NCBI GenBank assembly: GCA_977017645.1
Contig: OZ360220.1
Location: forward strand, 263,004,001-263,068,000
DNA: 64,000 bases
Reading direction: 5' to 3'
DNA from: Torpedo marmorata
Lineage: Eukaryota
The number at the start of each line of letters is the position of its first letter. Position 1 is the stretch's first letter. A program made the translations under genes and the position numbers. Below the pieces are notes generated by a model. It had not been told where the DNA came from and ran no database searches. It worked only from the letters and a program-made list of their open reading frames with translations. Positions 1 through 45,586 of the stretch are shown in pieces.

Positions 1-1461
1 CGTACCTGGCAGAGTATTGAAAATCTGCGCCAACCAACTAGCCGGAGTGTTCACGGACATTTTCAACCTCTCATTGCGGCAGTCAGATGTTCCCACCTGC
101 TTCAAAAGGGCATCAATCATCCCGGTACCCAAGAAGAGTAGTGTGAGCTGCCTCAACGACTACCGCCCAGTAGCACTAACTTCTACTGTGATGAAATGCT
201 TTGAGAGGCTGGTCATGGCCAGAATTAACACGTACCTAAGCAAAGATCTGGACCCACTGCAATTCGCCTATCGCCACAACCGCTCCACAGCAGATGCAAT
301 ATCGCTGACTCTCCACTCAGCTCTGGATCACCTCGAAAACAGCAAATCATACATACGGTTGCTCTTCATCGACTACAGCTCGGCCTTCAATACCATTATT
401 CCCTCAGTGCTGGTCAAGAAGCTACAAACTCTAGGCCTCTGTACTGGATCCTTGACTTTCTCATCGGAAGACCACAGTCAGTACGAATTGGAAACAACGT
501 CTCCTCCTCACTGATTATCAACACAGGCGCACCCCAAGGATGCGTGCTTAGTCCACTGCTCTACTCGTTATACACTCATGACTGTGTGGCCAGGCACAAT
601 TCCAATGCCATATACAAGTTTGCCGATGACACCACAGTTGTCGGCAGAATCACAAATGGCAAAGAGGAAGCGTACAGGAGGGAGATAGATCAGCTCGTTG
701 AATGGTGTACTGACAACAACCTTGAGCTCAACGTCAGCAAAACCAAGGAGATGATTGTGGACTTCCGGAGGAAGTCAGGGGAACACGACCCAGTCCTCAT
801 CGAGGGTTCAGTCGTGGAGAGGGTCAAGAACTTCAAATTCCTGGGTGTCAACATCTCCGAGGATCTGTCCTGGAGCATCCACGTGGATGCAATCACAAAG
901 AAGGCTCGTCAGCGGCTATACTTTGTGAGGTGTTTGCGGAGATTCGGTATGTCACCAAAGACTCTCGTAAACTTCTACAGGTGTACCGTGGAGAGCATTC
1001 TGGCTGGTTGCATCACTGCCTGGTATGGTGGCGCCAACTCCCAGGACAAGAGTAAACTCCAGAAGGTTGTTAACTCGGCCTGTGACATCACAGGCACCAA
1101 ACTTCACTCCATCGAGGACATCTACATGAGGCGGTGTCTTAAAAAAAGCAGCCTCTATCCTCAAGGACCCCCACCATCCAGGCCATGCCCCCTTCACTCT
1201 GCTTCCATCGGGGAAAAGGTACAGGAACCTAAAGACGAGCACTCAACGGCACAAGGACAGCTTCTTCCCCGCTGCCATCAGATTCCTGAATAATCAGTGA
1301 ACCAAAGACACTGCCTTACTTTTCGTGCACTATTGTTTATAATTTTTTATAGTCATGTCGTTAGAATGGTTAATATGAATGTTAATTGCACTATGATGCT
1401 GCCGCAAAACACCGAATTTCATGACTTGTTCATGACAATAAATTCTGATTCTGATTCTGAT
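1..1461 (+). mobile_element. Rex1/Babar-type LINE, RT region to 3' tail (runs off the window start), frameshifted; inserted into the Gypsy element that follows
   Basis: ORFs 17..514 and 544..1293 contain [33 protein letters not shown] and KFLGV. The 3' end is GACAATAAA followed by a (TTCTGA)n tail. Confidence 0.9.
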
Positions 1462-4400
1462 CTTGGGACCGAACACCCGAGCATCGCATCACCCCTACAG
1501 AATCCGACAGCGACTCTGTACTGGCCTCCATCACTCTCGATCAAGGGAGCCCCCATCAACTGGCCAGATCGATGATGGACATTGAGGTGGATGGCCACAG
1601 GACGAGCTGTCTTTTCGACAGTGGGAGCACGGAGAGCTTTATACACCCCGACACGGTACAGCGTTACCGACTTGCGGTAATGCCGGTAAGCCACAAAGTC
1701 TCCATGGCTTCCAAGTCCCACACACAGAGATCCGCGGGTATGGTGTAGTGACCCCAACTGTACTGGGCACAGAATATAAAAACTTTAAATTACTAGTCAT
1801 GACACAGCTCTGCGCAGACATGCTACTGGGGCTAGACTTCCAATGTCACCTTAAAAGTGTGACGTTGGAGTACGATGGACCCCATCCCCCTCTTACCGTC
1901 TGTAATCCGCAGTTTGTAAACTGCCATCGCAAGTCACCCACAGAAGCTCCCCGGGTCTCCCTCCCATCGCGTCCAGTCAGCGACCCACCGACCGCGCATG
2001 ACCTGCGGCCTTTCTACCCTCTGGATCGCCCCCACACCGTTGTTCGCTAATCATACCTCCGACTGCAAACCCGTGGCCACCGAAAGTAGGCAATACAGTG
2101 CCGGGGACAGAGCCTTTATCAGGTCAGAAGTGCAACGGCTGTTGAAGGAGGGGATCATCGAAGCCAGCACCAGCCCCTGGAGAGCCCAAGTGGTAGTGGT
2201 AAAAAATGGGGAAAAGAACAGGATGGTCATCGATTATAGTCAAACCATCAACAGATATACGCAGCTGGATGCGTACCCCCTCCCCCGCATAGCCGACATG
2301 CTGAACCAGATCGCCCAATACCGGGTATTCTCCACCATCGACTTAAAGTCAGCATACCACCAACTCCCCATCCGACCAGAGGACAGCCAATACACTGCCT
2401 TCGAGGCAGATGGCCGCCTCTATCATTTCCTGAGGGTCCCCTTTGGTGTCACCAATGGGGTCTCGGTCTTCCAGCGGGAGATGGACTGCATAGTCGACCA
2501 GTACGGGCTACAGGCCAAATTCCCGCATCTGGATAATATCACCATTTGCGGCCATGACCTATAGGATCATGAAGCCAACCTCCAAAAATTCCTTCAGACC
2601 GCCAAGCTCCTTAACCTTACTTATAATAAGGATAAATGCGTCTTTGGCACAACACGCCTGGCCATCCTTGGCAGTGTCATACAGGATGGAGTGATTGGCC
2701 CAGATGCAGACCGCATGCACCCCCTGTTGGAACTCCCACTTCCCCACAGCCTCAAAGCCCTGAAAAGGTGCCTGGGCTTCTTTTCCTATTATGCCCAGTG
2801 GGTCCCCAATTATGAGGACAAGGCCCGCCCCCTCGTCAAATCCACCTCTTTTCCCCTGACGTCAGAGGCCCGTGCGACTTTCAGCCACATCAAAGCGGAC
2901 ATCGCCAAGGCCGCGATGCACGCTGTGGACGAATCGACCCCTTTCCAGGTGGAGAGCGATGCGTCTGATTTTGCCGTGGCCGCCACCCTCAACCAAGCGG
3001 ACAGATCGTAGCTTTCTTTTCCCGCACCCTCCAGGGCCCAGAAATCTGACACTCCTCCGTCGAGAAAGAGGCCCAATCCATTGTTGAGGCGGTGCGGCAT
3101 TGGAGGCACTAACTCGCCGGAAAACGGTTTACCTTGCTAACTGACCAACGTTCAGTTGCGTTTATGTTCAATAACCAACAGCGAGGTAAAATTAAGAACG
3201 ACAAGATTCTGAGGTGGAGAATTGAACTATCCACCTACAATTACGATATCTTGTACCGGCCTCGTAAATTCAATGAGCCCCCAGATGCCCTTTCCCGCGG
3301 GACATGTGCCAGCGCACAAATAGACCGCCTACAAGCCCTCCACAGTGACCTCTGCCACCCCGGGGTCACCAGATTCTTCCATTTTATAAAAGCCCGCAGC
3401 CTACCTTATTCCATCGAGGAGGTCAGGACCATGACCAGGAACTGCCAAATCTGTGCAGAGTGCAAACCGCACTTCTACCGACCAGACAGAGTGCACCTGA
3501 TAAAAGCCACCTGCCCCGTTGAACGCCTGAGCATTGACTTCAAGGGACCCCTCCCCTCCTCCAACCACAACGTGTACTTCCTCAACATTATTGATGAGTA
3601 CTCATGTTTCCCATTCGCCATCCCCTGCCCAGACATGACCACAGCAACAGTCATCAAGGTCCTACGCAACCTTTTCACCCTCTTCGGGTACCCCTGCTAT
3701 ATCCATAGCGACCGGGGGTCCTCTTTTATGAGTGATGAGCTGCGTCAGTCCCTGCTGGCCAGAGGCATCGCTACGAGTAGGACCACCAGTTATAATCCCT
3801 GAGGGAAAGGGCAAGTGGAGAGGGAGAACGCTACTGTTTGGAAGGCCACCCTCCTAGCCCTAATGTCAAGAGGTCTTCCAGTCTCCCGCTGGCAAGAGGT
3901 ACTCCCCGAGGCACTCCATTCAATCAGATCACTCCTGTGCACAGCCACCAATGCCACTCTACATGAGAGAATGTTTTCCTTTCCTAGGAAGTCCGCTTCA
4001 GGGACCACGCTGCCATCCTGGCTGACGCCCCCAGGGCCGGTCCTACTCCGGAGGCATGCGAGGAGCCATAAGCAGGATCCACTGGTCGAAAGGGTCCATC
4101 TCCTCCACGCCAACCCCCAATACGCCTACATGACGTATCCTGATGGGCGGGAGGACACGGTCTCCGTTTGGGACGTGGTTCCCTCGGGAGTCCCTGACAC
4201 CACTGACGACCGCCCTGCCCCCTCCCCACCCACTGCCACCCATGATGCACCCTTACCATGGCAAGTAACCCCAGCTCCGGGGGATGGCTTGCCAGATACT
4301 TCGCTGCCACGCATCCACCAAGACAGAGCCGGCAACAACACACAGGTGGTACAATCAGGACTGGATGCAACAGCTGCGCCACAGCCGGTACTACAACGGT

Positions 4401-4726
4401 CACAGCGGCAGACCAGACCACCTGAAAGACTGAATCTGTGAGAACTTTAATTCACTTCACCCCACAGGACTCTTTTTAAAAAGGAGGGGTGAATGTGGTA
4501 AACCACTGTAAATACATGTATATATGTTTATGGTCGTCTGGACACGCCCCTTACTGGCTGTACCTGTGGCTCCTCCCACAGACCCCTGAATAAAGGCTAT
4601 TGTGCCACAGCTCCCTCCCCAGTCCAGCTCAGACGACCACCAGGAGTGTACATCCATTCCAATGTGAATAAAAGCCTATCAGTTCCTGTCTAACTTCTAG
4701 TCTTTGGAGTTATTGATGGTGCATCA
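1462..4726 (+). mobile_element. Ty3/Gypsy LTR retrotransposon, family A copy 1 (protease-RT-RNaseH-integrase, PPT, 3' LTR), disrupted
   Basis: Protease LFDSGS at ~1611-1628; RT DLKSAYHQL and HLDN; RNase H ESDASD; integrase H-C zinc finger, IDFKGP and HSDRGS; PPT AAAAAGGAGGGGTGAA; LTR TG...CA at 4494-4726. Confidence 0.93.
4494..4726 (+). repeat. 3' LTR (233 bp) of Gypsy family A copy 1
   Basis: TGTGGTAAACCACT...GCATCA directly after the PPT; homologous to the LTRs at 16104 and 18573. Confidence 0.9.
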
Positions 4727-5294: not shown

Positions 5295-6203
5295 GAATTG
5301 GAAACAACGTCTCCTCCTCACTGATGATCAACAGAGGCTCACCTCAAGGATACTTGCTTAGCCCACTGCTCTACTCACTCTACACCCATAACTGTGTGGC
5401 CAGGCACAATTCAAATGCTATCTACAAATTTGCCAATGACACCACGGTTGTCGGCAGAATCATAGACGGCAATGAGGAGGCGTACAGGAGGGAGATAGAT
5501 CAGCTCATTGAATGGTGTCATAACAACTGCCTTGCACTCAACATTAGCAAAGCCAAGGAGATGATTGTAGACTCCAGGGGAACATGACCCAGTCCTCATC
5601 GAGGGGTCAGCAGTGGAGAGTGTCAAATTCCTGGGTGTCAACATCTCCGAGGATATGTCCTGGAGTCTCCCTGTTGATGCAATCACGAAGAAGGCTCGCC
5701 AATGGCTATACTTTGTAAGGAGTTTGAGGAGATTCGGTATGTCACCAAAGACTCTCGGAAACCTCTACAGGAGCACCGTGGAAAGCATTCTGGCTGATTG
5801 TATCACTGTCTAGTATGGAAGTGCCAATGCTCAGGACAAGAAAAAGCTCCAGAGGGTTGTTAACTCGGCCTGCGACATCACGGGCACCAGTCTTCACTGC
5901 ATCGAGGACATCTACAAGAGGCAGTATCTTAAGAAAGCAGCCTTTATCCTCAAGGACCCCCACCACCCAGGCCATACCCTCTTCACACTGCTACCATCGG
6001 GATAAAGGTATCGGAGCCTGAAGACGAGCACTCAGCGGCACAAGGACAGCTTCTTCCTCTCTGCCACCATATTCCTGAATGAACAATGAACCATATACAC
6101 TACCTTACTGTGTCTTTTTCTTGCACTACTTGTATTTATTTGGTAAGGTAGTTTATATAAACAACAAATTTTGTGACATGTTCATGACAATAAATTCTGA
6201 TTC
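5295..6203 (+). mobile_element. 5'-truncated Rex1/Babar-type LINE
   Basis: Closely similar to 486-1290 ([23 protein letters not shown]); ends GACAATAAATTCTGATTC. Confidence 0.88.
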
Positions 6204-11838: not shown

Positions 11839-14800
11839 TAACCATATAACCATATAACAATTACAGCACGGAAACAGGCCATTAGGCCCTTCCAGTCCGC
11901 ACTGAACCAAACACTCCTCTCTAGTCCCACCTACCTGCACCCTGCCCATAACCCTCCACTTCCTTCTCATCCATATACCTGTCCAACTTTTTCTTAAATA
12001 ATAAAATTGACTCTGCCGCCACTACTTCTCCCGGAAGCTCATTCCACACCGCTACCACTCTCTGAGTAAAGAAGTTCCCCCTCATGTTACCTCTAAACCT
12101 CTGCCCATTAACTCTTAACTCATGTCCTCTTGTTTCAATCTCTCCTACTCTTAACGGAAATAGTCTATCCACATCCACTCTGTCTATCCCTTTCATAATC
12201 TTAAATACCTCTATCAAATCCCCTCTCAACCTTCTACGCTCCAAAGAATAAAGACCTAATCTGCTCAATCTCTCCTTGTACTCTAGATGCTTAAACCCAG
12301 GTAATATTCTGGTAAATCTTCTCTGCACTCTCTCCACTCTGTTGATATCCTTCCTATAATTTGGCGACCAGAACTGCACACAGAACTCTAAATTAGGCCG
12401 CACCAACGCCTTATATAATCTCAACATCACTTCCCAACTCCTATATTCTATGCAATGATTGATAAAGGCCAGCATACTAAAAGCCTTCTTCACCACCCTA
12501 TTCACATGAGTTTCTACCTTCAGGGAACGATGCACCGTTATTCCTAAATCTTTCTGCTCTTCTGTATTCATCAATGCTCTCCCATTTACTACGTATGTCC
12601 TGTTCTGATTCTTCTTACCAAAATGAAGCACCTCACACTTATCAGCGTTAAACTCCATTTGCCATTTTACAGCCCACTTTTCTAAGCAGCCCAAATCGCT
12701 TCTTCATTATCCACTATTCCACCTATCTTAGTATCGTCTGCATATTTACTAATCCAGTTCACCACCCCATCATCTAGATCATTAATGTATATAACGAACA
12801 ACAATGGGCCCAATACAGATCCCTGAGGCACACCGCTAGTCACCGGCCTCCAACCTGACAGACAATTATCCACTACCACTCTCTGGCCTCTCCCATTCAG
12901 CCAATGTTCAATCCATTTGACTATCTCAAAATTTATACCTAAAGACTGCACCTTCCTAACTAACCTTCCATGTGGTACCTTATTGAAGGCCTTACTGAAG
13001 TCCATATAGACAACATCCACCACGCTACCCTCATCCACATTCCTAGTCACCTCTTCAAAAAATTCAATCAGATTGGACAAACAGGACCTTCCGCTCACAA
13101 ATCCGTGTTGAGTGTTCCTGATCAGACCCTGTCTATCCAGATATTTATAAGTACTATCTCTAAGAACTTTCTCCATTAATTTACCTACCACAGACGTCAA
13201 ACTTACAGGCCGATAATTGCCAGGCTTCCTCCTTGAACCCTTTTTAAATAACGGAACCACATGCGCAATACGCCAATCCTCCGGCACTATCCCCATCTCT
13301 AATGACATTTGGAAAATCACCGTCAGAGCCTCTGCTATTTCCTCACTTACTTCTCTCAAGGTCCTGGGGAAGATCCCATCGGGTCCCGGAGACTTATCCA
13401 CCTTTATATGCCTCAAAAGCCCTAAAACTCCTCAAAAATTTTTTAAAGATTTAAATTCAATTATTAGAATATTTTTTATGGAAAAGAAAGTTAGCAAGAG
13501 TAGGTATGGAAAAATTAACTTGGAATTATGAAATGGGTGGTTTACAACTTCCTAATTTCCAAAATTATTATAAAGCAGCTCAACTAAAATTTGTTAATGA
13601 ATTATTTGACTCAACTAAATCTTCTGCTTGGATTAAAATAGATTTAAATAATATAGGAGAAGATTCCAAAGAAGAAATTATTTATAAATGGGATTCTAAA
13701 TTAATATCAACAAGAAAGAAAAATCCGCCTATTTTTAAACATTTGTTAGAAATATGGAATAAGATGGATAAGGAAATAGGAGGAAAATGATTGATTTCTT
13801 CAAGGATGCCTTTATATCAAAATGGACTTATTCCATTTACTATTAATAATCAATTATTTAAAATTTGGTTTCAAAAAGGAATTAAGAAGATTAATGATTG
13901 TTTTGAAGCTGGGAAATTTATTGCTTTTCAAAGAATGAAAGATAAATTTAATATATTAGATAATACACTTTTAGCTTATTATCAAATTAGAGCTTTTCTG
14001 ATTGAGAAATTAGGTTATGCTTTGATTTTACCAAGACAGAATGAATTAGAATTATTAGTTACTAATGGAGATGTCAATAAATTTATTTCTCAAATGTATA
14101 AATTGTTTCAGAGGAAAATGCCTAAAGTAGGATTGCATAAATCAAAATTAAAATGGGAATTAGATTTGAATGTAAGAATAGATGAAAATCATTGGAAAGA
14201 ATTATGTGAATTAAGTATGACGAAGATTTTAATGTTAGATATAGATTAGTACAATACAATTTTTTTCATCAATTATATTTAACACCTAAAAAACTAAAGA
14301 AATTTAATCCAACATTATCAGGTTTATGTTTTAGATGTAATAAAGAGGAAGGGTCTTTTGTACATTCTACATGGTTTTGTCCAAAAGTTTATGATTTTTG
14401 GTTGAAAGTTAAAAATTTTTTAGATAAAGTATTTAAGATTACATTTCCAATGGATCCTATGATATTTTTGTTTGGAGATATTAGAAAATTTAGTATTAAG
14501 ATGAAATTAAATATGTATCAAATAGAATTTTTGCGAATTGCTTTAGCTATTTCAAAGAAATGCATTGCTATTACTTGGAAATCTGATTTAGATTTAGGAT
14601 TAGAAAGATGGCATGCAGAACTTCGTTCGTGTATACCACTTGAAAAAATTACTTATAATTTACGTAATAAATATAATTTCTTCTTAAAAATTTGGAGCCC
14701 ATATATGAAAGCTGTTGGTTTCAGGATTTGAAGATCTCTGGATATTGGATCTACTGGCATACTTGACCTCCATAATAGAATTAGTTTATAGATTGGCATT

Positions 14801-15585
14801 CTCCGTACTCTATCTTTTTCTTTCTTTTTTCTTCTTCTTTTTCTATTTTTATTTTATATTTTTATTTTTATTAGATTAGTGGGTTTGGGAGGGTTGGGGA
14901 GGGGAGGGAGAGAGGGGGGGTGAAAATGTATCACAAATAACTTGATAATTTTATATTTTATTTTATGTATTTTGTGATTTAAATTTTTAAATAAAATATT
15001 TTAAAAAAAGCCCTAACACTATATCTTTCGTAATCACTATATTCTCCATATTTACCCAATTTGCTTTTTTTATCTCGCATATCCCAATATCCTTCTCCTT
15101 GGTGAATACCGAAGAAAAGAAACTGTTCAATATCTCCCCCATTTCTCTAGTCTCCACACACAGTTTTCCGCTCTGATTCTCTAAGGGACCAATTTTGTCC
15201 CTCGCTTTCCTTTTACCATTAACGTATTTATAGAAACCTTTTGGATTAATTGTCACCCTGCTTGCTATAGTCTCCTCGTACCTTCTTTTAGCTTTCCTAA
15301 TTCCTCTCTTAAGATTCCTTTTACATTCAATGTATTTTTCAAACATCTTCTTAATTCCATGCTTCTTATACTTAATGTACGCCTCCCTTTTTTTTCAAAC
15401 CATGTTTCCAATATTCCTCGAAAACCACGGCTCTCTCAAACCTTTTGCCCCTCCTTTTAACCTAACAGGAACATAAAGCTTTTGCACTCTCAAAATCTGA
15501 CCTTTAAAAGACTTCCATCTCTCTACTACATCCTGCCCATAAAACAAATTGTCCCAATGCACACCCTGTAAGTCCTTTCGCATTT
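11839..15585 (-). mobile_element. CR1 LINE ORF2 (5'-truncated), split by an L1 insertion at 13430-15005
   Basis: ORFs 15395..15583, 14987..15346, 12682..13416 and 11921..12694 ([33 protein letters not shown]); (GGTTATAT)n tail at ~11840. Confidence 0.92.
13430..15005 (+). mobile_element. AT-rich L1-clade LINE, 3' part of ORF2 plus 3' UTR, copy 1
   Basis: GGLQLPNF motif, CFRC..H..W.C zinc knuckle, G-rich 3' UTR and A tail; TSD AAAAGCCCTAA(A/C)ACT at 13415-13429 and 15006-15020. Confidence 0.9.
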
Positions 15586-16103: not shown

Positions 16104-18789
16104 TGTGGTAAACCACTATGTATAGGTTGTGGCTTGGTGATATGTCTGGACATGCCCTCTGCTGACTGTCCCAGTGGCTCCTCCCACAGACCTCCTGAAT
16201 AAAGGCCATTGTGCCACCACTCCTCCCCCAGTCCGGGACAGATTACCAGCATGGATGTGACTCCATTCTTTTGCTAATAAAAGCCTTTCAGTTCTAGTAT
16301 AACTTCTAGTCTTTTGAAGTTATTGATGGGCTCATCAATTTTATTAGCAAAATTGTAAGCATGGAAAATGTCTTGAGACCAGACAAGCTATTCTCCACCA
16401 TAGATCTTAAATCTGCCTACCATCAGCTCCCCATCCGTCGGGACGACTGCCCCAACACCGCCTTCGAGGCGGACGGCAGGCTCTATCACTTCCTGCGCGT
16501 CCCCTTCATGGTCACAAATGGGGTATCCGTCTTCCAGAGGGAGATGGACAGGATGGTGGACCAGTGCCAATTAAAGGCCACATTCCCATACCTGGACAAC
16601 ATTACTATCTGCAGTCATGACTGGCAGGACCATGATAACAATCTCCGGAAGTTCCTCCAGGCGGCCAAAGCACTTAATCTCACCTATAACAAGGATAAGT
16701 GTGTGTTCGGAACCACCTGACTCGCTATCCTGGAGTGCGTTGTGGAGAATGGAGTCATCGGCCCCGACCGCATGCGCCCCCTGCAAGAACTACCGCTCCC
16801 CCACACCCTCAGGGCTCTCAAAAGGAGCTTGGGCTTCTTCTCATACTATGCACAATGGGTCCCTAATTATGCAGACAAGGCCCGCCCCCTAGTCAAGTCC
16901 ACCACTTTTCCCCTCGCAGCGGAGGCACGAGGCCTTCAGCCTCATAAAAGGCGACATTGCCAGGGCAGCAATGCACATGGTGGACGAGTCCACTCCCTTC
17001 CAAGTAGAGAGCGACGCGTCCGACTTCGCACTGGCTGCTACCCTCAACCAGGCGGGAAGACAGGTGGCGTTTTCCTCCCGTACCCTTCAAGGCCCAGAAA
17101 TTCGGCACTCAGCAGTGGAGAAAGAGGCCCAGGCCATAGTGGAAGCTATCAGGCAACTGGAGGCACTATCGAGCCAGCAAAAGGTTTACCCTGTTGACTG
17201 ACCAGCGCTCAGTCGCATTTATATTCAGCAACCAGCAGCGGGGTAAGATCAAAAACGATAAAATCCTGAGGTGGAGAATCAAAATCTTCACCTACAGATA
17301 TGATATCATGAACCGGCCCGGGAAGCTCAACGACCCCTCCGATGCCCTATCCCGGGGGACGTGCGCCAGCGCACAGATCGACCGGTTATATGCCCTCCAC
17401 TGCGACCTCTGCCATCCCGGAGTCACCCGGCGTTTCCACTTTGTGAAAGCCCGAAACCTGCCGTACTCCCTTGAAGAGGTCAGGACGATGACCGGGAGCT
17501 GCCAAGTCTGCGCGGAGTGCAAACCGCACTTCTACCGACCTGACAAGGCACAATTGATAAAAGCAACCCGCCCATTTGAGCGACGACTTTAAGGGCCCCC
17601 TCCCCTCCACTGACTGCAATGTGTACTTTCTCAACGTCATTGACGAGTACTCGTGATTCCCTTTCGCCATTCCCTGCCCCGATACCACGACCACCTCCGT
17701 CATAAAAGCCCTCCGTAAACTCTTCATATTGTTTGGATACCCCTGCTATATCCATAGTGACTGAGGGTCCTCGTTTATGAGTGACGAGCTGCTTCAATAC
17801 CTGCTCCAATATCGCGACTAGGAGGACCACGAGCTATAACCCCCGGTGGAATGGACAAGTGGAGAGGGAGAACACCACGGTCTGGAAGGCCACACTCTTA
17901 GCCCTCAGGTCTAAGGGATTACCAGTCTCCCGCTGGCAAGAAGTCCTTCCCGAGGCACTCCACTCCATCTGCTCCCTGCTATGCACATCCACCAATGCCA
18001 CCCCTCATGAGAGACTCTTTTCCTTCCCCAGGAAGTCGGCCACCGGGACTACCCTACCAGCATGGATGACGTCCTCAGGGCCAGTGCTGCTCTGGAAACA
18101 TGTCAGGAGCAATAAATATGCCCCAACGGTCGAGAGGGTTCAACTACTACATGCAAACCCCCAGTACGCCTACGTGGTTTTTCCTGATGGGCAGGAAGAC
18201 ACGGTCTCCATCCGGGACTTGGCATCCACAGGAGCACTGGTGCCCACCCCAGAACACTCCATGGTTACTGTCACCCCTGCACCGACCATGAGAGACACAC
18301 AGGAGACACCACCCAATTCAAAACAGACACTAAACGAGACCCCCGTACTGACATACACACACGAGGTTTTGCTGACGCCAGACGTGCTGGTACCTCCAAT
18401 CAGGCAGGAGGCAACACCGCCACCTGCCCCATCACCACAAGTACTGTGCCGATCACAGTGGCGGACTCGACCGCCTGACCGACTCGACCTGTAAATATAC
18501 TAATTTGTAATTTTTTTTGTTTATATTGTTACACCCTTCACCCCATGGGACTCTTTTAAAAGGAGGGGTGAATGTGGTAAACCACTTTGTATAGGTTGAG
18601 TCTGGGTGATATGTCTGGACATGCCCTCTACTGACTGTCCCAGTGGCTCCTCCCACAGACCTCCTGAATAAAGGCCATTGTGCCACCACTCCTCCCCCAG
18701 TCCGGGACAGAATACCAACATGGATATGACTCCATTCTTTTGCTAATAAAAGCCTTTCTAGTCTTTTGAAGTTATTGATGGGCTCATCA
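16104..18789 (+). mobile_element. Gypsy family A copy 2: two-LTR provirus with a large internal deletion
   Basis: LTRs 16104-16337 and 18573-18789 (TG...CA; about 8 substitutions and a 17-bp indel by eye); 5-bp TSD GCAGG at 16099-16103 and 18790-18794; RT, RNase H and integrase remnants. Confidence 0.95.
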
Positions 18790-19422
18790 GCAGGCACAGG
18801 AGGAACCATAATAGTGTCAGGAGCTAATGCTGGAGAACAGCACTGAGCAAGGTCTATGGGCCTGAAATATTAGCAGTGGTGGGTGGGTGAGTTACCCTAT
18901 GAAGGTATATTAAGACTTACTAGTGTTTGACATGCAAGACACACTCTCCTTATGCTCACTTTCCAGCTCCCTTCTAAATGCAACATAGCTGTCTAATCCC
19001 ACTTGAGCAAATTCAGGTCTATTATCTCTGATTCAAATTGCTAAAAGAAAGCTGACAATGAGAATTCAGAGTGCTCATTGCCATCTAAAAACCCATCCAT
19101 GATCAATTTCCTATTTGAATCATCATTACAGTGTGGCTGATTCAATTTACCACATTTTGCATCAATATCTAACCCATCACTGAAATCTGACTGAAACAAA
19201 GGAGAATGAAGGGACATCTTTCTCAACAAGAAGGCAGATGCTGGCTGTGGAGGCATTTAGTAAGAGCACTGAATGTGCATAAGACAAGGGTTACAGAGGT
19301 AACAAGTAAAGATAACCTCTGTGCTTTAAAAAAAAAATCTAATTGAAATGAGTTTCAACTTTATTCAGTAAAACACAAAAGTCTGCAAACTCCGTGATTG
19401 AAGTAAAAACACAATGCTGGAG

Positions 19423-20332
19423 TGTTATGGACCATGACTGACAATTTGGACTACGGACGGTAAGCAGGAAGGATGAAGTCTTTTGGAGTACACACTGGGA
19501 CCTGGTACTGAAAGAGTTAACTTGCCCAGGACTTCTTGTATTTACCAGAGAGAGACAAACTGTGGAAAGATATACTTGGTTATGAAACTTTTGAAAAGGG
19601 AGCGAGAGAAAACTCTCTCTACAGAAATGCCTAAAGTTCAGTCGTGGAAAACTGAATCAGTGGCAGTTTTGGAGTTGCAAAGGCGGGAGAACTCAGCAGG
19701 ATCCAGGCTTGTGCATCCCAGAGAAGAAGTTGGGAGAGTAGCACAGAGTCTCTTGAATCAGAAAAATCCAGGCTTGTGTATCCCAGGGAAAAAGGCTGGG
19801 AGAAATACAAAGCCTCTTGATGATTCGGCAGAATCCTGAGTTGAGAGCAGCTTTTGTGAGGAACAAGCTGTGAAATCCAGGTGTGCGCCTCAATCCAGAA
19901 CGGATCTGAATTCGCAATCCTTGTGAAAACACCAGAATGGAAAGTCATCAGAGAAGAAAAGCAAGCCAAGTATTCGTAAGCATAAACAGTCATTGTCTCT
20001 CTCCAACGTTCATTAAGAAGTCCTGCTTGCCAGCACACAGAGCTGAATTTGGACCCTGAACATAGAGAGTGAATTTTTGTGGACTGTATTTTTGGGACTG
20101 ACTTGTTTTTATGACTGACCTGGGGTTTTTGGGGAAAGTTTTTCCATTTTTACATGAGGGTTGGGCACAGACTTTAATGGTCTGGGCTTTACACACACAC
20201 ACACCTTTTAGATAAGAATAGTGTTTATAGTGGGGTTAATTGTTGTGAAATTATATGTTTAAATAAATATAAATTTCAATTTTATGCCTTTTGCATTGAG
20301 TCTTCTGTCGTTGCTGGTTTGAATTTGTAACA
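19423..20332 (+). mobile_element. Solo LTR (910 bp) of the Gmr1-type Gypsy family, inserted into a Penelope terminal fragment
   Basis: TGTTA...TAACA termini; 4-bp TSD GGAG at 19419-19422 and 20333-20336; reverse complement of the LTRs at 33651 and 39407. The flanks rejoin as AATGCTGGAG-AAACTCAGCGGGTC. Confidence 0.93.
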
Positions 20333-20502: not shown

Positions 20503-23130
20503 TAAAAAAAAAAAAAATTTTATTTAAAATTTTTAAATCACAAAATACATAAAATAAAATATGAAATTGTCAAAATATTTGTGATAAATTTTCACCCCCC
20601 CTCCCACCCTCCCCTCCCCAACCCTCCCAACCCCACTAATCTAATAAAAATAAAATATATAAAATAAAAATAGAAAAAGAAAAAAAAAAGAAGAAAGAAA
20701 AAGATAGAGTAAGGAGAATGCCAATCTTAAAAAAAAACATACATCTATAAACTAATTCTATTATGGAGGTCAGGTATGCCAGTAGATCCGTTACGCAGAG
20801 ATCTTCAAATACTTAAACCAACAACTTTCATATATGGGCTCCAAACTTTTAAGAAAAAATGATATTTATTATGTAAATTATAAGTAATTTTTTCAAGTGG
20901 TATACACGAACGAAGTTCTGCATGCCATCTTTCTAATCCTAAATCTAAATCAGATTTCCAAGTAATAGCAATACATTTCTTTGAAACAGCTAAAGCAATT
21001 TGCAAAAATTCTATTTGATACATGTTTAATTTCATCTTAATACTAAATTTTCTAATATCTCCAAACAAAAATATCATAGGATCCATTGGAAATATAATCT
21101 TAAATACTTTATCTAAAATTTTTTTAACTTTCAACCAAAAATCATAAAGTTTTGGACCAAACCATGTAGAATGTACAAAAGAACCTTCCTCTTTATTACA
21201 TCTAAAACATAAACCTGATAATGTCGGATTAAATTTCTTTAGTTTTTTAGGTGTTAAATATAATTGATGAAAAAAATTGTATTGTACTAATTTATATCTA
21301 ACATTAATAATCTTCGTCATACTTAATTTACATAATTCTTTCCAATAATTTTCATCTATTATTACATTCAAATCTAATTCCCATTTTAATCTTGATTTAT
21401 GAATTCCTACTTTAGGAATTTTCCTCTGAAACAATTTATACATTTGAGAAATAAATTTATTTACATCTCCTATTTAGTAACTAATAATTCTAATTCATTC
21501 TGTCTTGGTAAATCAAAGCATAACCTAATTTCTCAGTCAGAAAAGCTCTAATTTGATAATAAGCAAAAAGTGTATTATCCAATATATTAAATTTATCTTT
21601 CATTCTTTGAAAAGTAATAAATTTCCCAGCTTCAAAACAATCATTTATTTTCTTAATTCCTTTTTGAAACCAAATTTTAAATAGTTGATTATTAATAGTA
21701 AATGGAATAAGTCCATTTTGATATAAAGGCATCCTTGAAGAAATCAATCCTTTTCCTCCTATTTCCTTATCCGTCTTATTCCATATTTCTAACAAATGTT
21801 TAAGAATAGGAGAATTTTTCTTTCTTGTTGATATTAATTTAGAATCCCATTTATAAATAACTTCTTCTTTGGAATCTTCTCCTATATTATTTAATTCTAT
21901 TTTAATCCAAGCAGAAGATTTAGTTGAATCAAAAAAATCATTAACAAATTTTAATTGAGCTGCTTTATAATAATTTTGGAAATTAGGAAGTTGTAAACCA
22001 CCCATTTCATAATTCCAAGTTAATTTTTCCATACCTACTCTTGCTAACTTTCCTTTCCATTAAAAATTTCTAATAATTGAATTTAAATCTTTAAAATTTT
22101 TTTGAGGAATTTCATAAGGAATTGATTGGAAAAGATATTGAATTCTTGGAAAAACATTCATTTTAATACAATTTACTCTTCCCATTAAAGTTATAGGTAA
22201 ATCTATCCAATTTTCTAAATCCTTTTTTATTTTCACAAATAATGGTAAATAATTTAATTTGTATAAATTAGCCAATTTTGTGTCAATCCTTATTCCCAAA
22301 TATTTAATTCCTTCCTTTGCCCATTTAAATTGTGTAATTTCTTTACATCTACTATAATCCCCTTGTGATAATGCCATAATTTCACTTTTATCAGAATTAA
22401 TTTTATATCCAGATATTTCCCCATATTCTCTCAATAACGCAGACAATTGTACTAAAGATGTAGTGGATTTTGTCATATATATCAATACATCATCTGCAAA
22501 TAAACTAATTTTATGTTCTTCCATTCCAACTTTAATACCAACTATTTTAGGATCTTTTCTAACTAATTCTGCCAAAGGTTCTATCGCCAAAATAAATAAC
22601 GCTGGTGACAAAGGACGTCCTTGTCTAGTAGATCGAGTCAAAGGAAATCTTGAAGAAATTTGTCCATTTGTAACTACTTTAGCAGATGGTTCTTTATATA
22701 TAGTTTTAATCCAATTAATAAATGTACTTCCAAAACCAAATTTCTCCAATACCTTAAATAAAAAATTCCACTCTAATCTATCAAAAGCCTTTTCGGCGTC
22801 TAAAGTTAAAACTAATGGTAAATCTTCCTTCTTTTTATGTAGATTAATTAAACTAATTAATCTAGCTATATTGTCTTTTGAATATCTATTTTTACTAAAA
22901 CCAGCTTGATCTACATGAATTAAATCTGGTAAATAATTAGCCATTCTATTTGCTAAAATTTTTGCCATTATCTTATAATCTACATTTAACAATGAAATAG
23001 GTCTATATGATTCAGTTTTCACTACATCTCTATCTTTTTTTTGGTATAACTGTAATTATTGCATTTAAGAAAGTATCTGGTAATGAGTGGGTTTCCGTAA
23101 TTTGATTCAATACATCCATATGTGGAGGTA
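20503..23130 (-). mobile_element. AT-rich L1-clade LINE, RT to 3' UTR, copy 2
   Basis: ORF 22060..23022 (YRPISLLNVDYK, DAEKAFD, TRQG.PLSP, LFADD, KYLG); exact TSD CTTTATTCAACTAT at 20489-20502 and 23131-23144. Confidence 0.92.
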
Positions 23131-25147: not shown

Positions 25148-27161
25148 TGGTCAACTAGACAAGGTTGTCCTTTGTCACCTGCATTGTTTATTTTAGCAAT
25201 AGAACCTTTGTCAGAATTAATTAGACAAGATACTAAGATTGCAGGTATTAAAGTTGGAAGAGAAGAGCATAAAATTAGTTTATTTGTAGATGATGTATTG
25301 ATTTATATGACAAAACCTATTACTTCTTTAATACAATTGAATGTTTTATTGAAAGAATATGGGGAAATATCTGGTTATAAGATTAATTCTGATAAAAGTG
25401 AAATTATGGCATTGACACAAGGGGATTATAGTAAATGCAAAGAAATTACACAATTTAAATGGTCAAAGGAAGGAATTAAATATTTGGGAATAAAGATTGA
25501 TACAAAATCAGCTAATTTATATAAATTAAATTATTTACCACTATTTATGAAAATTAAAAAAGATTTAGAAAGTTGGAAGGATTTACCTATAACTTTAATA
25601 GGAAGGGTAAACTGTATTAAAATGAATGTCTTTCCAAGGATTCAATATCTTTTTCAATCAATTCCTTATGAAATTCCTCCGAAATTCTTTAAGGATTTAA
25701 ATTTAATTATTAGGAAGTTTTTGTGGAAAGGAAAGTTGGCTAGAGTAGGTATGGAGAAATTAACTTGGAATTATGAAATGGGTGGTTTACAACTCCCTAA
25801 TTTTCAAAATTATTATAAAGCAGCTCAATTAAAATTTGTTAATGAAATGTTTGATTGAGGAAAATCTTCTGCTTGGATTAGAATAGAATTAAATAATATA
25901 GGAGAAGATTTGAAAGAAGTTATTTATAAATGGAATTCTAAATTATTATTAACAAGAGGGAAGAATTCTCCTATTTTTAAACATTTGTTAGAAATATGGA
26001 ATAGAGTGGATTTACTGTTGATAATCAATTATTTAAAATTTGGTTCCAAAAGGGAATTAAGAAAATAAATGATTGTTTTGAAGCTAGTAAATTTATTACT
26101 TTTCAAAGAATGAAAGAAAAGTTTAATATATTAAACAATACACTTTTTGCTTATTATCAAATCAGAGCATTTTTAGTTGAAAAGTTGGGTTATAGTTTGA
26201 TTTTACCAAGACAAGAGTGAACTGGAATTATGTAAATAAATTTATTTCTCAAATGTATAGATTGTTACAGAGGAAAATGCCTAAATTAGGAATTCACAAA
26301 TCAAGATTAAAATGGGAATCAGATTTGAATGTAACAATAGATGAAGAACATTGGAAAGAATTATGTAAACAAGTATGACGAAGATTATTGATGTTAGATA
26401 TAGATTAGTGCAATATAATTTTTTTCACCAACTATATTTAACACCTAAGAAATTAAAGAAATTTAATCCGACATTATCAGGTTTATGTTTCAGATGTAAT
26501 AGAGAGGAAGGTTCTTTTGCACATTCTACATGATTCTGTCCAAAGATATATGATTTTTGGTTGAAAGTTTAAAATTTTTTAGATAAAGTATTAAGTATTA
26601 CACTTCCAATGGACCCTATGATATTTTTGTTTGGAGATATTAAAAGAATTAGTATTAAGAGTAAATTAAATATGTATCAAATAGAATTTTTGCAAATTGC
26701 TTTAGCTGTTTCTAAGAAATGCATTGCTATTACATGGAAATCTGATGTAGATTTAGGATTAGAAAGATGGCATGCAGAACTTCGTTCAGCTATACCATTT
26801 GAAAAAATTACTTATAAATTATGTAATAAATATCATTTCTTTTTTAAAATATGGAGCCCATATATACAAACTGTTGGTTTAAGGATTTGAAGATCTCTGG
26901 ATATCAGATCTGACTGGCGAACCTATCTTCCACAATAAATTCAGTTTATAGTTGTTCTTTAGATTGACATTCTCCTTACTCTACCTTTTTCTTTTTTTCT
27001 TTCTTTCTTTTCTATTTTAGTAGATTAGTAGGGGTGGGAGGGTTAGGGAGGGGAGGGAGGGAGGGGGGGGTGAAAATGTATCACATGTATTTTGATAATT
27101 TTCCATTTTATATTATGTATTCTGTGATTTAAAAATTTTAAATAAAATATTTTAAAAAAAG
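25148..27161 (+). mobile_element. AT-rich L1-clade LINE, copy 3
   Basis: STRQGCPLSP, LFVDD, KYLG; same 3' UTR as copies 1 and 2; TSD AAGAAA(A/T)ACTTAGCC at 25133-25147 and 27162-27176. Confidence 0.92.
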
Positions 27162-33650: not shown

Positions 33651-36600
33651 TGTTACAAATTCAAACCAGCAATGACAGAAGACGCAATGCAAAAGGGGTA
33701 AAATTGAAATTTATATTTATTAAAGACAATTAAACATAATATTTCACAACAATTAACCCCACTATAAACGTCTATAAACACTATTCTTATCTAAAAAGTG
33801 TGTGTGTGTGTGTGTGTGTAAAGCCAAGACCATTACAGTCTGTGCCCAACCCTCATGTAAAAATGGAAAATCTTTCCCCAAATACCCCAGGTCAGTCATA
33901 AAAACAAGTCAGTCCCAAAAATACAGTCCACAAAAATTCACTCTCTGTGTTCAGGGTCCAAATTCAGCTCTGTGTGCTGGCAAGCAGGACTTCTTAACGA
34001 ACGTTGGAGAGAGAGACAATAACTGTTTATGCTTACGAATGCTTGGCTTGCTTTTCTTCTCTGATGACTTTCCCTTCTGGTGTTTTCACAAGGATTGCGA
34101 ATCCAGATCCGTTTTGGATTGAGGCGTATACTTGAATCTCACAGTCTGTTCTTCACAAAAGCTGCTCTCAACTCAGGATTTTGCTGAATCACCAAGGTCT
34201 TGCTTTTGGTCCCAACCTTTTCCACAGGGATGCACAAGCCTGGATTTTTTTATGATTCAAAAGGCTCTGTGTTCTTCTCCCAACCTCTTCTCTGGGATGT
34301 ACAAGCCTGGGTCCTGCTGAGTTCTCCCGCCTTTGCAACTCCAAAACTGCCACTGATTCAATTTTCCATGACTGAACTTTTAAGGCTTCCTGCAGAGAGT
34401 CTCTCTGTCTTTTTTCAAAAATTCAACAACCAAGTATCTCTTTCCACAGTTTGTCTCCCCCTGGTGTCTCTCTCTGGTAAATACAAGAAGTCCTGGGCAA
34501 GTTAACTCTTTCAGTACCAGGTCCCAGTGTGTACTCCAAAAGACTTCATCCTTCCTGCTGACCGTCCGCAGTCCAAATTTTCAGTCATGGTCCATAACAC
34601 CTCCCACCCACAAAGAAAATTTTGGTCTGCAAAAACAAAATTTTGGAAATTGAGGTGTTACAATATAAACAAAACCCACAATGTTCATCCACAAACACAA
34701 AATATGAACTATTTTCATTTATAAAGTTTAACATCTAGAAAGACAATCAACAATTATATTATCTTTCCCTTTTATATGTGTTATTACCAAATCATATTCT
34801 TGCAAAATTAGACTCCAATTCAACAACCGTCGATTCTTATTTTTCATTTTACAAAGAAAAACCAATGGATTATGGTCAGTATACACTATGAGTGGTTTTT
34901 GAGCTGTACAGATATAAACATCAAAGTGTTGTAGAGCCAACACAAGAGCCAACAACTCTTTTTCTATGGTTGAATAATTCCTTTGATGATCATTGAACTT
35001 CTTCGAGAAGTAGGATACTGGATGGTCAATGTCCTCTTTGTTCTTCTTCTGTAACAACACCACGCCCACAGCTTCATCGCTGGCATCCACGGCTAAAGAA
35101 AACGGCTGTTCTAAATTAGGTGACTTAAGCACAGGTTGGTGGCATAACATGGCTTTCAATTTGACAAATGCTTCCTGACAACCTGTAGACCATACAAATT
35201 TTTCTCTCTTTCTAAGCAAATTTGTGAGAGGGAGCGCAAGGTCAGCAAAGTTTTTACAGAACTTGCGGTAGTAGCCAATCATTCCCAGGAGCCTCCTCAG
35301 AGTTTTCTTACCAGTTGGAACAGGGAACTTGGAAATAGTCACAACCTTTGCCTCTACTGGCGCCAACTGCCCCTGTCCTACTACATAACCCAGATAAATA
35401 ACAGTAGCATGTCCAAACTCACTTTTACTGAAATTAACTGTGAGATTTGCTTTGGACAGTCGTTCGAACAATTGTTTTAGCTCAAAGACATGCTCTTCCC
35501 AGGTCTCACTACTTACAATTAAATCATCAATGTAAGCACCTGTGTTTTTCAACCCTTGAATTACTGAATTAATCATTCTCTGAAATGTTCCTGGAGCATT
35601 CTTCACACCAAAAGGCATAACATTATGCTCATACAGCCCAAAAGGTGTTACGATTGCAGAAATCTCCCGAGCCCTTTTTGTCAAGGGAACACACCAGTAC
35701 CCTTTCAATAAGTCAATTTTTGTAAGAAATTTGGCCTTCCCCACCTTGTCTATACAATCGTCTATTCTAGGAATAGGATAAGCATCTGTCTTTGTTACAG
35801 CATTTACTTTCCTATAATCAGTGCAAAACCTAACCGTTCCATCAGGCTTAGGCACTAAAACACAAGGGGAACTCCAATTGGAAGTAGACTTTCAAATGAT
35901 ATTGTTCTTTACCATGTAGTCAATTTCCTGATATACCAGTTTGCACTTTTCTGCATTGATTCGATAGGGATGCTGTTTTATCGGTCTTGCATCTCCTACA
36001 TCCACATCATGATAAGCGATGGAAATTTTCTGAGGCACATCGGGAAATAAATTTATAAATTTCAAAAATAACTGACTCATCTCTTCCTTTTCTGAAGTTT
36101 TCAGATGAGCCAACTTTATCTCCAGATTGCACAAAATCATGGAATTTTCTAACCTCGGGCTTATCAATTTCTGTGTCCCATGACCCTCTCTGAAACTGGT
36201 TTTATCTGTCTCCTCCTTACCCTGATCAATAACCAGCACCTCTGGTAAATGTTCAGTCTCTGTGCGGCACCTGTTCAAAATATGGCTTAATCATATTCAC
36301 ATGACAGACCTCTGTGTCTCGTCTGCTATTAGGTGTTTCTATGACATAGGTGACATCATTAATTTTTGACTTAACTCTATAGGGTCCTGAAAATCTAGCC
36401 CTAAGAGGATTTGAATGGATGGGAAACAGAATTAATACGTTCTCACCAGGTTTAAAAGTTCTCATCTTAGCCTTTCGATCATACCAAACCTTCATTCTCT
36501 GTTGAGTGGCCTTTAAATTCTCCTTTGCCATCTCACAAGTCCTATGCAACCGATCCTTAAATTTGGAAAGAATCTAACAAATTTAAATGCACATCACTAT

Positions 36601-39600
36601 TAATCCACTGTTCTTTTAATAATCTTAAAGGACCTCTCACCTCATGTCCGAAAACTAACTCGAATGGACTAAAATCAAGTGATTCTTGGACAGACTCCCT
36701 CGCTGCAAATAACAAAAAATGAACCCCCTCATCCCAATCCTTTTCCTTCTCACAACAATAGGTTCTAATCATGTTTTTCAAAGTCGAATGGAACCTCTCC
36801 AAGTCCCCTTGACTTTCTGGATGGTATGCAGAGGATACAATCTGTTTAACTCCCAGTCCATCAACCACTTGTTGGAAAACGCCTGACGTGAAATTACTGC
36901 CGTGATCTGATTGAATTTCCCTTGGCAAACCTACCAAGGTGAAAAACTTTACCATAGCCTTTAAAATTGATTTTGCTTTAATGTTTCTCAGAGGAATGGC
37001 CTCTGGAAATCTGGTGGCTGCACACACAATTGTTAACAAATACTCATTCCCCGCTTTGGTTTTGGGCAATGGGCCAACACAGTCCACAATCACTCTCGAG
37101 AAAGGCTCACCGAAAGCAGGGATAGGTTGCAAGGGTGCCACCGGGCTACCCTGATTAGGTTTACCCACCACCTGACAAGTGTGACAGGCCCGGCAAAAGC
37201 TTACAACCTCCCTTCTCAAACTGGGCCAATAAAATTGTTTTATTATCTTCCTTTTAGTTTTCTTCACCCCAAGATGATCACCTCAGGGTGTGCTATGAGC
37301 CAAAGTTATTATTGCATCCCTATATACTTTTGGGATCACAACCTGCTGCACTACTGCCCATTCTTCATTGGCAGGAACATCACATGGTCTCCACTTTCTC
37401 ATCAACACCCCATCTTTTTCATAATAACCCACTGGCACCTTTTGAATCTCCTCTTCAGAGAGAACCTTATCCCTCACCTCAGCAAGATCAGGATCGTCCT
37501 TTTCCTTTGCTATTAGCTCCTGTTGGGATAGTGACAAATCTGTGCCTTGAGGTGTCTTATCAGTGGATGGTTGTAACACAGGAGATTGCTCAACCTTTTC
37601 CAGGTTTACTTGATTATCACTGACTTTTTCTTTCACCAATTTATTTTCCACTGCCTTCTCTACAGTGACATTTTTCTTAGACATGGCCCTGGTTATGGCA
37701 CATGCCGGATAAATATCAGAGTCTTTCTCTGACTTATCAATGACTGGCTTAGTGGTCATTCGCACTGCAGGAACTACTTTACCCTTAGCCAAGTCATTGA
37801 CTAGCAACAGTGAGACTCCTTCTACTGGCAACTCTGATCTCACTCCTATTATAACAGGTCCTTCCACCAAGTCTGAGTCCAACACTATTTTGTGCAAAGG
37901 AATGGACTCAACATCACCTCCAATTCCTTTAATTAAATTCATGTCACCAGTGTCAGTAGCTTCACAAAATTTCAAGACACTATCTAACACAAGTGACTGA
38001 GCAGCTCCAGTATCTCGCAAGATTTTCACTGGAACTTGTTTTGATCCTGCCTTAACTGAAACAAAACCATCAGTCACAAAAGGTTTAAATACATCCCTAA
38101 CTTTATCAGTAAATTTATCTCCTTCCTGGGTGTTATGCCTCTTCTCACTCTGAATACAAGCATTAGGTGTTGCATCCTTTTCTCTCTTCTTTTTCAACAC
38201 TGGACAGCTTGCTAGCATATGACCAGCCTTCTTACAGTAGTGGCAAATGGGACCCGAAGGGTTTTCCTTTTTCCACTTTCCTTCATTCCTTTCCTTAACA
38301 CCACTTCCAAATTTACTTTCCACTTGGGATTATCCACATTGACCTTTTGGAAAATTCTGCCTGACGTCCACTTAGGCTTGTGGGTTAAAGCATATTCATC
38401 TGCTAACTTAGCTGAATTTTGCCAAGTTTTCACCTCCTTTTCATCTAAGTATGCCTTAATATCCTCAGGAACACACCTTTTTATCTCCTCGATTATTATC
38501 AATTCTCTCAATTGATTGTAATCATTGTTTACTGCCTTAGATGTGCACCACCGGTCAAAACACACAACCTTTTCACAGGCAAACTCTGTGTAAGATTGGG
38601 CTGCTGATCTTTTTAAATTTCTAAACTTCTGTCTATAAGCCTCTGGAACTAGCTCATAAGCTTGGAGTATAGCCTTTTTCACCGTTTCATAATCAGCAGC
38701 TTGCTCCGTGGTAATAGTAGAATAAGCTTGCTGAGCTTTTCCTTTTATTACACTTTGTAACATAAGAGACCATTGGTCTTGTGGCTATTTTAACTTCATA
38801 GCCACCTTCTCAAAATGCTGGAAGTACTTATCTATTTCTGCCTCCTCAAATGGAGGAACCAACCTAACTTCTCTACTGGCCAAAAACCTCTCAACAGGAC
38901 CACAAATTTTATCTTGGTGCTCTTCTTGTCTCCTCTCATTTTCCAACTTAATCTTTTCCAGCTCATATTTCCTAATGTTCTCCTCTCTCTCTAAGTCTAA
39001 TCTCTTTTGTTCCCTGGCTGCCTCCAATTCCAATTTCTTTAGTTCCAACTATGTTTTCAGAAGGTTTACCCTTGGGAAACTGCTCTAACATGCTCGCCTC
39101 AAACATTTTCCCTTTTATATAGTATTTGACATTTTTTCTCCCAATCTCTGCCTTTTTCATAGATGGTTTTACAGAAGCAATGCCCAACTCTGTTGCTATA
39201 GCCACTAACTGTTCCTTTTTCTCCTTTTTTAAAGTATCAAGTTCAGGTGATTCCAAAAATGTTCTTACATCGATTGTTGCTGGTTTTTCATTACACACAC
39301 ACTAGCTTTTAATTAGCTTTACAAAAGGAATGTCTTAAACCAGACTGGGATTCCTTCAATTACCATGATGGATTTTGATTCAAATCCAAGGACGAGCCCC
39401 CAATTTTGTTACAAATTCAAACCAGCAACAACAGAAGACGCAATGCAAAAGGGGTAAAATTGAAATTTATATTTATTAAAGACAATTAAACATATAATTT
39501 CACAACAATTAACCCCACTATAAACGTCTATAAACACTATTCTTATCTAAAAGGTGTGTGTGTGTGTAAAGCCCAGACCATTACAGTCTGTGCCCAACCC

Positions 39601-40348
39601 TCATGTAAAAATGGAAAATCTTTCCCCAAATACCCCAGGTCAGTCACAAAAACAAGTCAGTCCTAAAAAAATACAGTCCACAAAAATTCACTCTCTATGT
39701 TCAGGGTCCAAATTCAGCTCTGTGTGCTGGCAAGCAGGACTTCTTAACGAACGTTGGAGAGAGAGACAATGACTGTTTATGCTTATGAATGCTTGGCTTG
39801 CTTTTCTTCTCTGATGACTTTCCCTTCTGGTGTTTTCACAAGGATTGCGAATCCAGATCCATTTTTGATTGAGGCTTATACTTGAATCTCACAGCCTGTT
39901 CTTCACAAAAGCTGCTCTCAACTCAGGATTTTGCTGAATCACCAAGGCCTTGCTTTTGGTCCCAACCTTTTCCTCTGGGATGCACAAGCCTGGATTTTTT
40001 ATGATTCAAAAGGCTCTGTGTTCTTCTCCCAACCTCTTCTCTGGGATGCACAAGCCTGGATCCTGCTGAGTTCTCACGCCTTTGCAACTCCAAAACTGCC
40101 ACTGATTCAATTTTCCATGACTGAACTTTTAAGCCTTCCTGCAGAGAGTCTCTCTGTCTTTTTTCAAAAGTTGAACAACCAAGTATATCTTTCCACAGTT
40201 TGTCTCCCCCTGGTGTCTCTCTCTGGTAAATACAAGAAGTCCTGGGCAAGTTAACTCTTTCAGTACCAGGTCCCAGTGTGTACTCCAAAAGACTTCATCC
40301 TTCCTGCTGACCATCCGCAGTCCAAATTGTCAGTCATGGTCCATAACA
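33651..40348 (-). mobile_element. Full-length Gmr1-type Gypsy LTR retrotransposon (gag with SCAN-like capsid and CCHC, protease, integrase, RT, RNase H), disrupted by stops and frameshifts
   Basis: LTRs 39407-40348 and 33651-34599; 4-bp TSD GAAG at 33647-33650 and 40349-40352; CHYCKKAGHMLASC, LRDTGA, integrase (VDCVGP, SDHGS) upstream of RT (YIDD); PPT GTGGGTGGGAGG. Confidence 0.96.
39390..39402 (-). promoter_or_regulatory. tRNA-Pro primer binding site of the Gmr1-type element
   Basis: TGGGGGCTCGTCC, 4 nt inside the 5' LTR, matching the 3' end of tRNA-Pro. Confidence 0.88.
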
Positions 40349-45216: not shown

Positions 45217-45586
45217 GTGTGTAAAATGTGAAGCCTGGAAAAGTAAGTGCTAAAATAGCCGTGAGTGTTTGAGTGGAAAGAAGAAGGTAGAGTCAAGAAT
45301 AAGATGAGGTATTCTGACCTTGACACATGCGAATGATTCACTGAACCTCTTCTAGCAGTACAGTCTATTCAATGGGAATAGAATTAAATGGGAGCTAAAC
45401 TCCTAGAATTGATTTCCTTAATTATTTTAGTAATCTGTTAACATGAGCTATGGAGCACAGGAGTCATCTCCTGTATCCTGGTATTAAAAGTGCAATTGAC
45501 AGTCTAAATTTCAGTGTCTAACCAGATCATCAATGCAAAAGTTTCCAAAAACAATCCAAACTTATTGCAGAATATCAATGCTATAA

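Follow-up and report, generated by a model that had tools for sequence, protein, structure and literature searches.

We consider it likely, judging from sequence comparison, that in a Mag-like clade of Ty3/Gypsy retrotransposons the third catalytic position of the reverse transcriptase (RT) is naturally occupied by either Asn or Asp, and that the Asn form copied its element with two metal-binding aspartates. The Asn is fixed in whole subfamilies that keep the other two aspartates, and the substitution rates show that the RT was in all probability under strong purifying selection while it carried the Asn. Two copies of such an element lie in the window, the stretch of 64,000 nucleotides from Torpedo marmorata that was analysed here (Table 1).

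The RT motif C of copy 2 is encoded in the RT frame by TAC CTG GAC AAC and reads YLDN within FPYLDNITIC. That of copy 1, also in the RT frame, is CAT CTG GAT AAT and reads HLDN. In a family profile of 54 members the YLDN tetrapeptide falls in the column of the Ty3 RT YLDD, so the Asn occupies the position of Ty3 D214. Aligned over 1,856 nt, the two copies show 76% identity, and both are broken elements. Copy 1 lacks its 5′ end and has a stop at 2562–2564; copy 2 has a stop at 16718–16720, frameshifts and about 1.7 kb missing from early gag to early RT. YLDN is present at 28 of the 30 loci nearest to copy 1 and HLDN at two, one of them copy 1 itself. The motif (Y/H)LDN, given for both copies by the first-pass annotation, is thus confirmed, while the His is not a family trait.

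Table 1. Features of the two YLDN/HLDN element copies in the window.
Feature	Position	Strand	Basis or remark
RT motif C of copy 2, YLDN	16589..16600	+	reading frame; profile alignment with Ty3 YLDD
Motif A catalytic Asp of copy 2 (IDLKSAY)	16403..16405	+	Asp in 99/99 Asn-type foreign homologues
5′ LTR of copy 2 (TGTGG...ATCA), target duplication GCAGG just before	16104..16337	+	
LTR arm of the fold-back, contains AATAAA	16269..16282	+	14 nt, 100% complementary to 16339-16352
Fold-back arm at the primer-binding-site position, without the TGG start expected for a tRNA 3′ end	16339..16352	+	
Start of gag, fused directly to RT by the ~1.7 kb internal deletion	16361..16389	+	
Broken RT, RNase H and integrase of copy 2	16390..18494	+	
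Polypurine tract of copy 2	18553..18572	+	
3′ LTR of copy 2, followed by GCAGG	18573..18789	+	96.3% identity to 5′ LTR over 217 aligned nt
RT motif C of copy 1, HLDN (CAT CTG GAT AAT)	2526..2537	+	
Copy 1, 5′-truncated: protease region, RT, RNase H, integrase; stops and a frameshift	1460..4493	+	
3′ LTR of copy 1	4494..4726	+	

Copy 2 has the features of a Ty3/Gypsy LTR element, namely the 5-nt duplication, the LTR pair and the polypurine tract, and many other loci are alike. The fuller copies are about 4.4–4.8 kb long with LTRs of 230–260 nt, and one gag-pol frame encodes protease, RT, RNase H and integrase in this order. Ty3 is the closest RT, and Ty3 RT is the best match in both sequence and fold among solved structures. 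The fold model of the RT (pLDDT 88.5) confirms the RT fold; no active-site geometry was obtained from it. Two zinc knuckles were found in 61 of the 65 homologues long enough to score and in all five of the copies checked in this genome. No env domain was detected in three long polyproteins, and no chromodomain match in three proteins. Matches in the ESM Atlas are generic Gypsy clusters only; among named homologues, those of Hypanus, Mobula, Scyliorhinus and Narcine come nearest.

The size, LTR length, fused gag-pol, pair of zinc knuckles and domain order agree with those of Mag-type Gypsy elements, such as pufferfish Mag1 and Mag2, in the descriptive passages of PMC11117352 and PMC2577118; the latter gives two zinc knuckles for the Mag nucleocapsid. 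The LTR ends differ. TGTGGTAA...ATCA is an exact fit to neither the Mag A nor the Mag C motifs, and the TGTGG start is nearer to that of CsRN1 (PMC3601003, Table 3). The name Mag-like is given to the family for its architecture. The passages describing Mag-type elements in PMC11117352 and PMC2577118 mention no YxDN motif or fold-back. YLDN, YMDN and YIDN were absent from the searched part of the supplement files of PMC6238403, PMC8556966 and PMC3587641, and YLDN from the searched supplement files of PMC11117352.

Several other elements lie in the window. Another Gypsy occupies 33651–40348 on the minus strand, with LTRs of about 950 nt (96% identical), a YIDD RT, a SCAN domain before a zinc knuckle, and the integrase upstream of the RT, which we take to be the Gmr1-type order. 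A solo LTR at about 19422–20332 is related to it. Related LINE pieces with FADD or FVDD RT motifs, 85–94% alike, are found on both strands at 13425–15010, 20512–23055 and 25151–27161. Another set of related LINE fragments, 73–86% alike and with endonuclease and RT matches, is at 11840–13407, 47180–48750 and 52086–53016. The segments 229–1344, 5295–6141 and 44261–45224 are non-LTR RT pieces, each followed by a match to Pfam ALKBH8_N; one of them is just upstream of the truncated copy 1.

The Asn of the YLDN motif is inherited and is not a product of decay. All 30 loci nearest to copy 1 carry it, in a search whose query itself contained the Asn. The kin of copy 2 were picked by the DNA downstream of the motif, and here 27 of 30 loci have YLDN, none YLDD and three another sequence. 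A canonical YxDD RT has three catalytic aspartates. Among the best 120 of 1,298 homologues, 118 cover the motif, of which 102 have Asn in the third place (xxDN), 13 are xxDD and three are other. The named carriers of the Asn are Hypanus, Mobula, Narcine, Scyliorhinus, Oculina, Actinostola, Pocillopora, Porites, Paramuricea and Trichinella. The first-pass annotation had taken the Asn as ancestral rather than acquired after insertion, and this is borne out by both sets of kin and by the sporadic nature of decay elsewhere.

In the contrary explanation the elements had Asp when they inserted, and CpG deamination of their GAC-GAY (Asp-Asp) codons produced the Asn later, once the copies were dead. 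This process does occur, for GAC AAC is seen at eight of 25 loci of one Asp subfamily, and some Asn sites are decayed Asp copies. The eight loci represent two events, since seven of them belong to one segmental duplication. The Asn copies of this genome are also older than the Asp copies (p = 1.3e-10), as such decay would have it. Against this, decay at other Asp sites of Asn-type copies is sporadic (motif A Asp to Asn in 3/57, first integrase Asp to Asn in 7/50), whereas no Asp codon is left in the 30 + 30 kin of the window copies. Moreover, GAT AAT, the form in 28 of the 30 copy-1 kin, can not be reached by one CpG change, and the Asn is present in near-identical intact coral copies. CpG decay as a general cause is therefore contradicted for the subfamilies of both window copies, and we give it hardly any probability.

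A young Asp-to-Asn sublineage of seven near-identical loci was considered and rejected, because the loci have about 7 kb in common, flanks included, at 99% identity and constitute one segmental duplication. Contig C45 carries, at 24.1–29.3 Mb (L261–L267), seven copies of one segment, 7 kb or longer at about 99% identity and each with the same truncated element. This is a recent multi-copy segmental duplication.

Asp and Asn copies were counted over the whole genome by exact patterns, which undercount old copies and favour young ones. The totals are about 12,100 YLDN and about 23,800 YLDD sites of the family. The first pattern gave 23,697 Asp and 7,785 Asn sites, and a second, disjoint codon pattern gave 138 Asp and 4,308 Asn sites. 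A hidden old Asp family with other Leu, Ile or Met codons did not appear, the Asp sites in the codon contexts of the second pattern being those 138 only.

Ages were sampled from the first sites along contig C1, with 60 Asn and 40 Asp loci; one Asp site, inside a neighbouring stretch, was skipped. The median LTR identity is 95.2% for Asn (32 pairs) and 99.2% for Asp (35 pairs), with no identical pairs among the former and eight among the latter. Open frames of at least 1,000 aa are found at 2/60 Asn and 22/40 Asp loci. Twenty further loci of the youngest Asn subfamily have a median of 97.9% (17 pairs), and 40 Asn loci of the second pattern one of 95.2% (26 pairs, one of which is probably not an LTR pair). 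Together, the 120 Asn-type loci yielded 75 LTR pairs, of which four reach 99% and none 100%. Young YLDN copies with identical LTRs, for which the first-pass annotation had called, were not found among these pairs. The same annotation had set YLDD in the youngest copies against its own reading. The youngest copies here do carry YLDD, but they are nested in YLDN subfamilies, and other species do have young families with YxDN.

The direction of change was read from two protein trees. In the first, of 138 rows, the motif column was removed and a quick method with a long outgroup was used. It has 11 Asp/Asn changes, seven of them forced by the starred branches. In its cartilaginous-fish clade all outer branches are Asn, and the Asp copies of Torpedo marmorata are nested inside. 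The second tree has 123 rows. Of 150 representatives at 50% clustering, those of at least 50% identity comprise 43 DN, 32 DD and five other, with eight uncovered; those at 45–50% comprise nine DN and 11 DD, with one uncovered; those below 45% comprise no DN and 36 DD, with five uncovered. The tree contains a clade of 87 rows (support 98) with Asp on the basal branches and 12 changes, two of them forced. Thus the Asn is derived within the clade and unstable. The Asn does not mark a distinct lineage, as had been proposed, because the RT trees need 11–12 changes between Asp and Asn.

DNA trees of the genomic copies, rooted on the most distant Asn subfamily, give two switches to Asp, but the AU test does not reject a topology with all Asp copies in one clade (p = 0.42). 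A single switch in this genome, obtained by rooting on near subfamilies, was not upheld, as deeper outgroups give two. The main Asp clade is the sister of Asn subfamilies N2–N4, so that Asp and Asn existed side by side for a time. The dS differs between domains, which hints at recombination.

The clade has signatures, WRAQ, DYS and AFE, that are common to its Asn and Asp members and nearly absent outside; in the fingers they take the place of motifs usual in other Gypsy RTs. In the RT fingers (about 2181–2250 of the window), the R and Q of WRAQ occur in 0/36 outsiders, and the S of DYS in the clade stands where 32 of 34 outsiders carry R. No column, as a candidate compensating residue, tracks the Asn/Asp state in both the foreign homologues and the Torpedo marmorata genome. 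The best correlates among foreign homologues, for which the statistics ignore kinship, were not found in the Asp copies of Torpedo marmorata and were discarded.

The YxDN RT is very likely functional and very likely drove the mobility of its own elements, as the first-pass annotation had suggested for a naturally mobile two-aspartate enzyme. This is argued by the low dN/dS of the RT, by the Asn-carrying relatives and by near-identical intact YIDN loci in a coral. When the RT of the copy-1 subfamily is compared with that of three other Asn subfamilies, the mean pairwise dN/dS comes to 0.05, with dS at about 2.3, near saturation, and pairs beyond the correction range dropped. It is 0.09–0.15 among those three. 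In Asn-type foreign homologues the motif A Asp is kept in 99/99 and the first RNase H Asp in 86/86. Four loci of Pocillopora verrucosa, which may include haplotype duplicates, encode uninterrupted YIDN polyproteins of 1,181 aa that are 99.2–99.5% identical. In the Hypanus cluster, all nine of the listed members that cover the motif have YLDN. Contigs of four runs, whose RNA status is a guess, contain both Asn and Asp codons and say nothing for or against expression.

What speaks against a working Asn RT is that 0/75 Asn-type LTR pairs are identical, versus 8/35 of the Asp type. The YLDN elements might be weak or dead in polymerization and copied by a co-packaged YLDD sister, their Pol being retained for the protease, RNase H or integrase, or as a non-polymerising subunit of an RT dimer. 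In the Ty3 dimer only one subunit polymerises, as stated in PMC5371799; a dead subunit, however, would have no need of the motif A Asp, which all 99 Asn-type foreign homologues keep. The YLDD sisters are abundant in this genome, with their 23,697 exact sites, but no large old Asp family is seen, given that no Asp-type LTR pair among 35 falls below 96.7% identity and that Asn sites outnumber Asp sites in the second codon pattern. As the sister of N2–N4, the Asp clade has a stem that overlapped these subfamilies in time and could have supplied RT to them, yet two Asn subfamilies branch outside the entire Asp clade. The LTR and fold-back design is common to YLDD and YLDN elements, which speaks for a partner; against one, in eight foreign 90% clusters no Asp was present among the listed motif-covering members, a count of cluster members only. 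We regard copying by a YLDD partner as improbable, and retain the Asn enzyme as the one that copied its own element.

The 14 nt that follow the 5′ LTR of copy 2 are fully complementary to a stretch of that LTR which holds AATAAA (fold z = −2.1). Among 91 copies with a recognisable LTR end, self-complementarity of at least 11 nt is found in 76, versus 191 of 7,552 cross-pairs, and there are 32 sequence types. The fold-back is therefore real and co-varying. The LTR arm always spans the poly(A) hexamer (AATAAA or ATTAAA) and varies along with it from subfamily to subfamily.

The first-pass annotation went further and proposed that YLDN is co-adapted with fold-back priming, the two defining a separate lineage. 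Both traits do occur in this clade, the Asn was seen only inside it, and the fold-back co-varies over the 32 types. However, in Torpedo marmorata, the genome in which this was scored, a perfect complement of at least 11 nt is present in 41/54 Asn-type and 35/37 Asp-type copies, and Asn and Asp branches are intermingled in both protein trees, with Asp on the basal branches. Strict co-adaptation is contradicted by these observations; the fold-back is independent of the Asn, and we hold the proposal, its weaker form with fold-back priming permitting the Asn included, to be very unlikely. The geometry would suit self-priming. In the mechanism that we propose the fold-back is a trait of the clade in its own right; it likely serves as a tRNA-free primer and would at the same time hide the poly(A) signal at the 5′ end.

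In Tf1 the pairing arm is made of the first bases, at the 5′ end, of the transcript, and the integrase has a chromodomain. Here the partner arm includes the poly(A) signal, is situated 64–71 nt upstream of the LTR end and is probably not formed by the first bases of the transcript. The family has in common with Tf1/sushi elements a primer site complementary to the element's own RNA, in the 76 of 91 copies given above. As in Tf1-type self-priming LTR elements, the partner of the primer-site position is LTR sequence of the element itself and not a tRNA, and tRNA independence is ascribed to Tf1-type elements in PMC5371799.

A search of open-access full text found no Gypsy element described with YLDN, YMDN or YIDN. 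To our knowledge, the third catalytic Asp is almost always present in reverse transcriptases. Ty3 D214N still polymerises, though less processively, and the mutation abolishes transposition (PMC5371799). Ty1 D211N keeps polymerase activity in vitro, with a 223-fold lower kpol and a preference for Mn2+, and RNase H suppressors restore its transposition to 5–10% (PMC2148107). Position and substitution are the same as here, but those are laboratory mutants without transposition, whereas the present Asn is natural and appears to have been selected over long spans.

A natural counterpart, overlooked by the first-pass annotation, is known from nematodes. YVDN is found in Cer7–Cer12 of C. elegans, and the 2005 report left as a question whether enzyme activity is retained (PMC554778). 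Nematode belpaoviruses are set apart by this motif, and among them is the Atlas virus of Ancylostoma, an intact element with identical LTRs (PMC9094657). In these LTR elements, too, the last Asp of YxDD has naturally become Asn. They are, however, BEL/Pao elements with env, while the present family has a Ty3/Gypsy RT, lacks env and shows a site that flips repeatedly in one clade. An independent origin is therefore most likely, and the Asn site is a convergent counterpart of the nematode case. A Trichinella spiralis protein (P0350) with YVDN sits inside this Gypsy clade in the RT tree; YVDN thus seems to occur in two superfamilies of nematode elements.

The mutants of Ty3 and Ty1 suggest that the metals are held by the motif A Asp together with the first Asp of YxD, and that the third residue may aid positioning and turnover, which Asn could do in part. 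The clade-wide changes in fingers and palm (WRAQ, DYS, AFE) may, as a guess, form a permissive background, in which the site would flip by one transition. One or two switches to Asp gave rise to the youngest subfamilies sampled in Torpedo marmorata.

More unusual are the repeated switches between Asp and Asn and the young Asp radiation nested in older Asn subfamilies. It is conceivable, with the odds somewhat against it, that in this Gypsy clade, which ranges from corals to cartilaginous fish, the third Asp switches freely between Asp and Asn and that the return to Asp drove the largest and latest expansion of the family here. The clade would then amount to an experiment, performed by nature several times over, on a catalytic residue that the yeast Ty elements cannot do without. 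Caution about a radiation driven by the switch is advised because only one or two events are involved, exact patterns favour young copies, and young Pocillopora and Hypanus families carry the Asn.

The clade offers many natural sister pairs, about 80–97% identical, that differ at this site, with thousands of datable copies. Since the same change abolishes transposition of Ty1 and Ty3, these sister enzymes could show what makes the Asn tolerable, and the role of the third carboxylate is testable by comparing natural enzymes. Pipelines that score YxDN copies as dead will misjudge a large group of marine retrotransposons.
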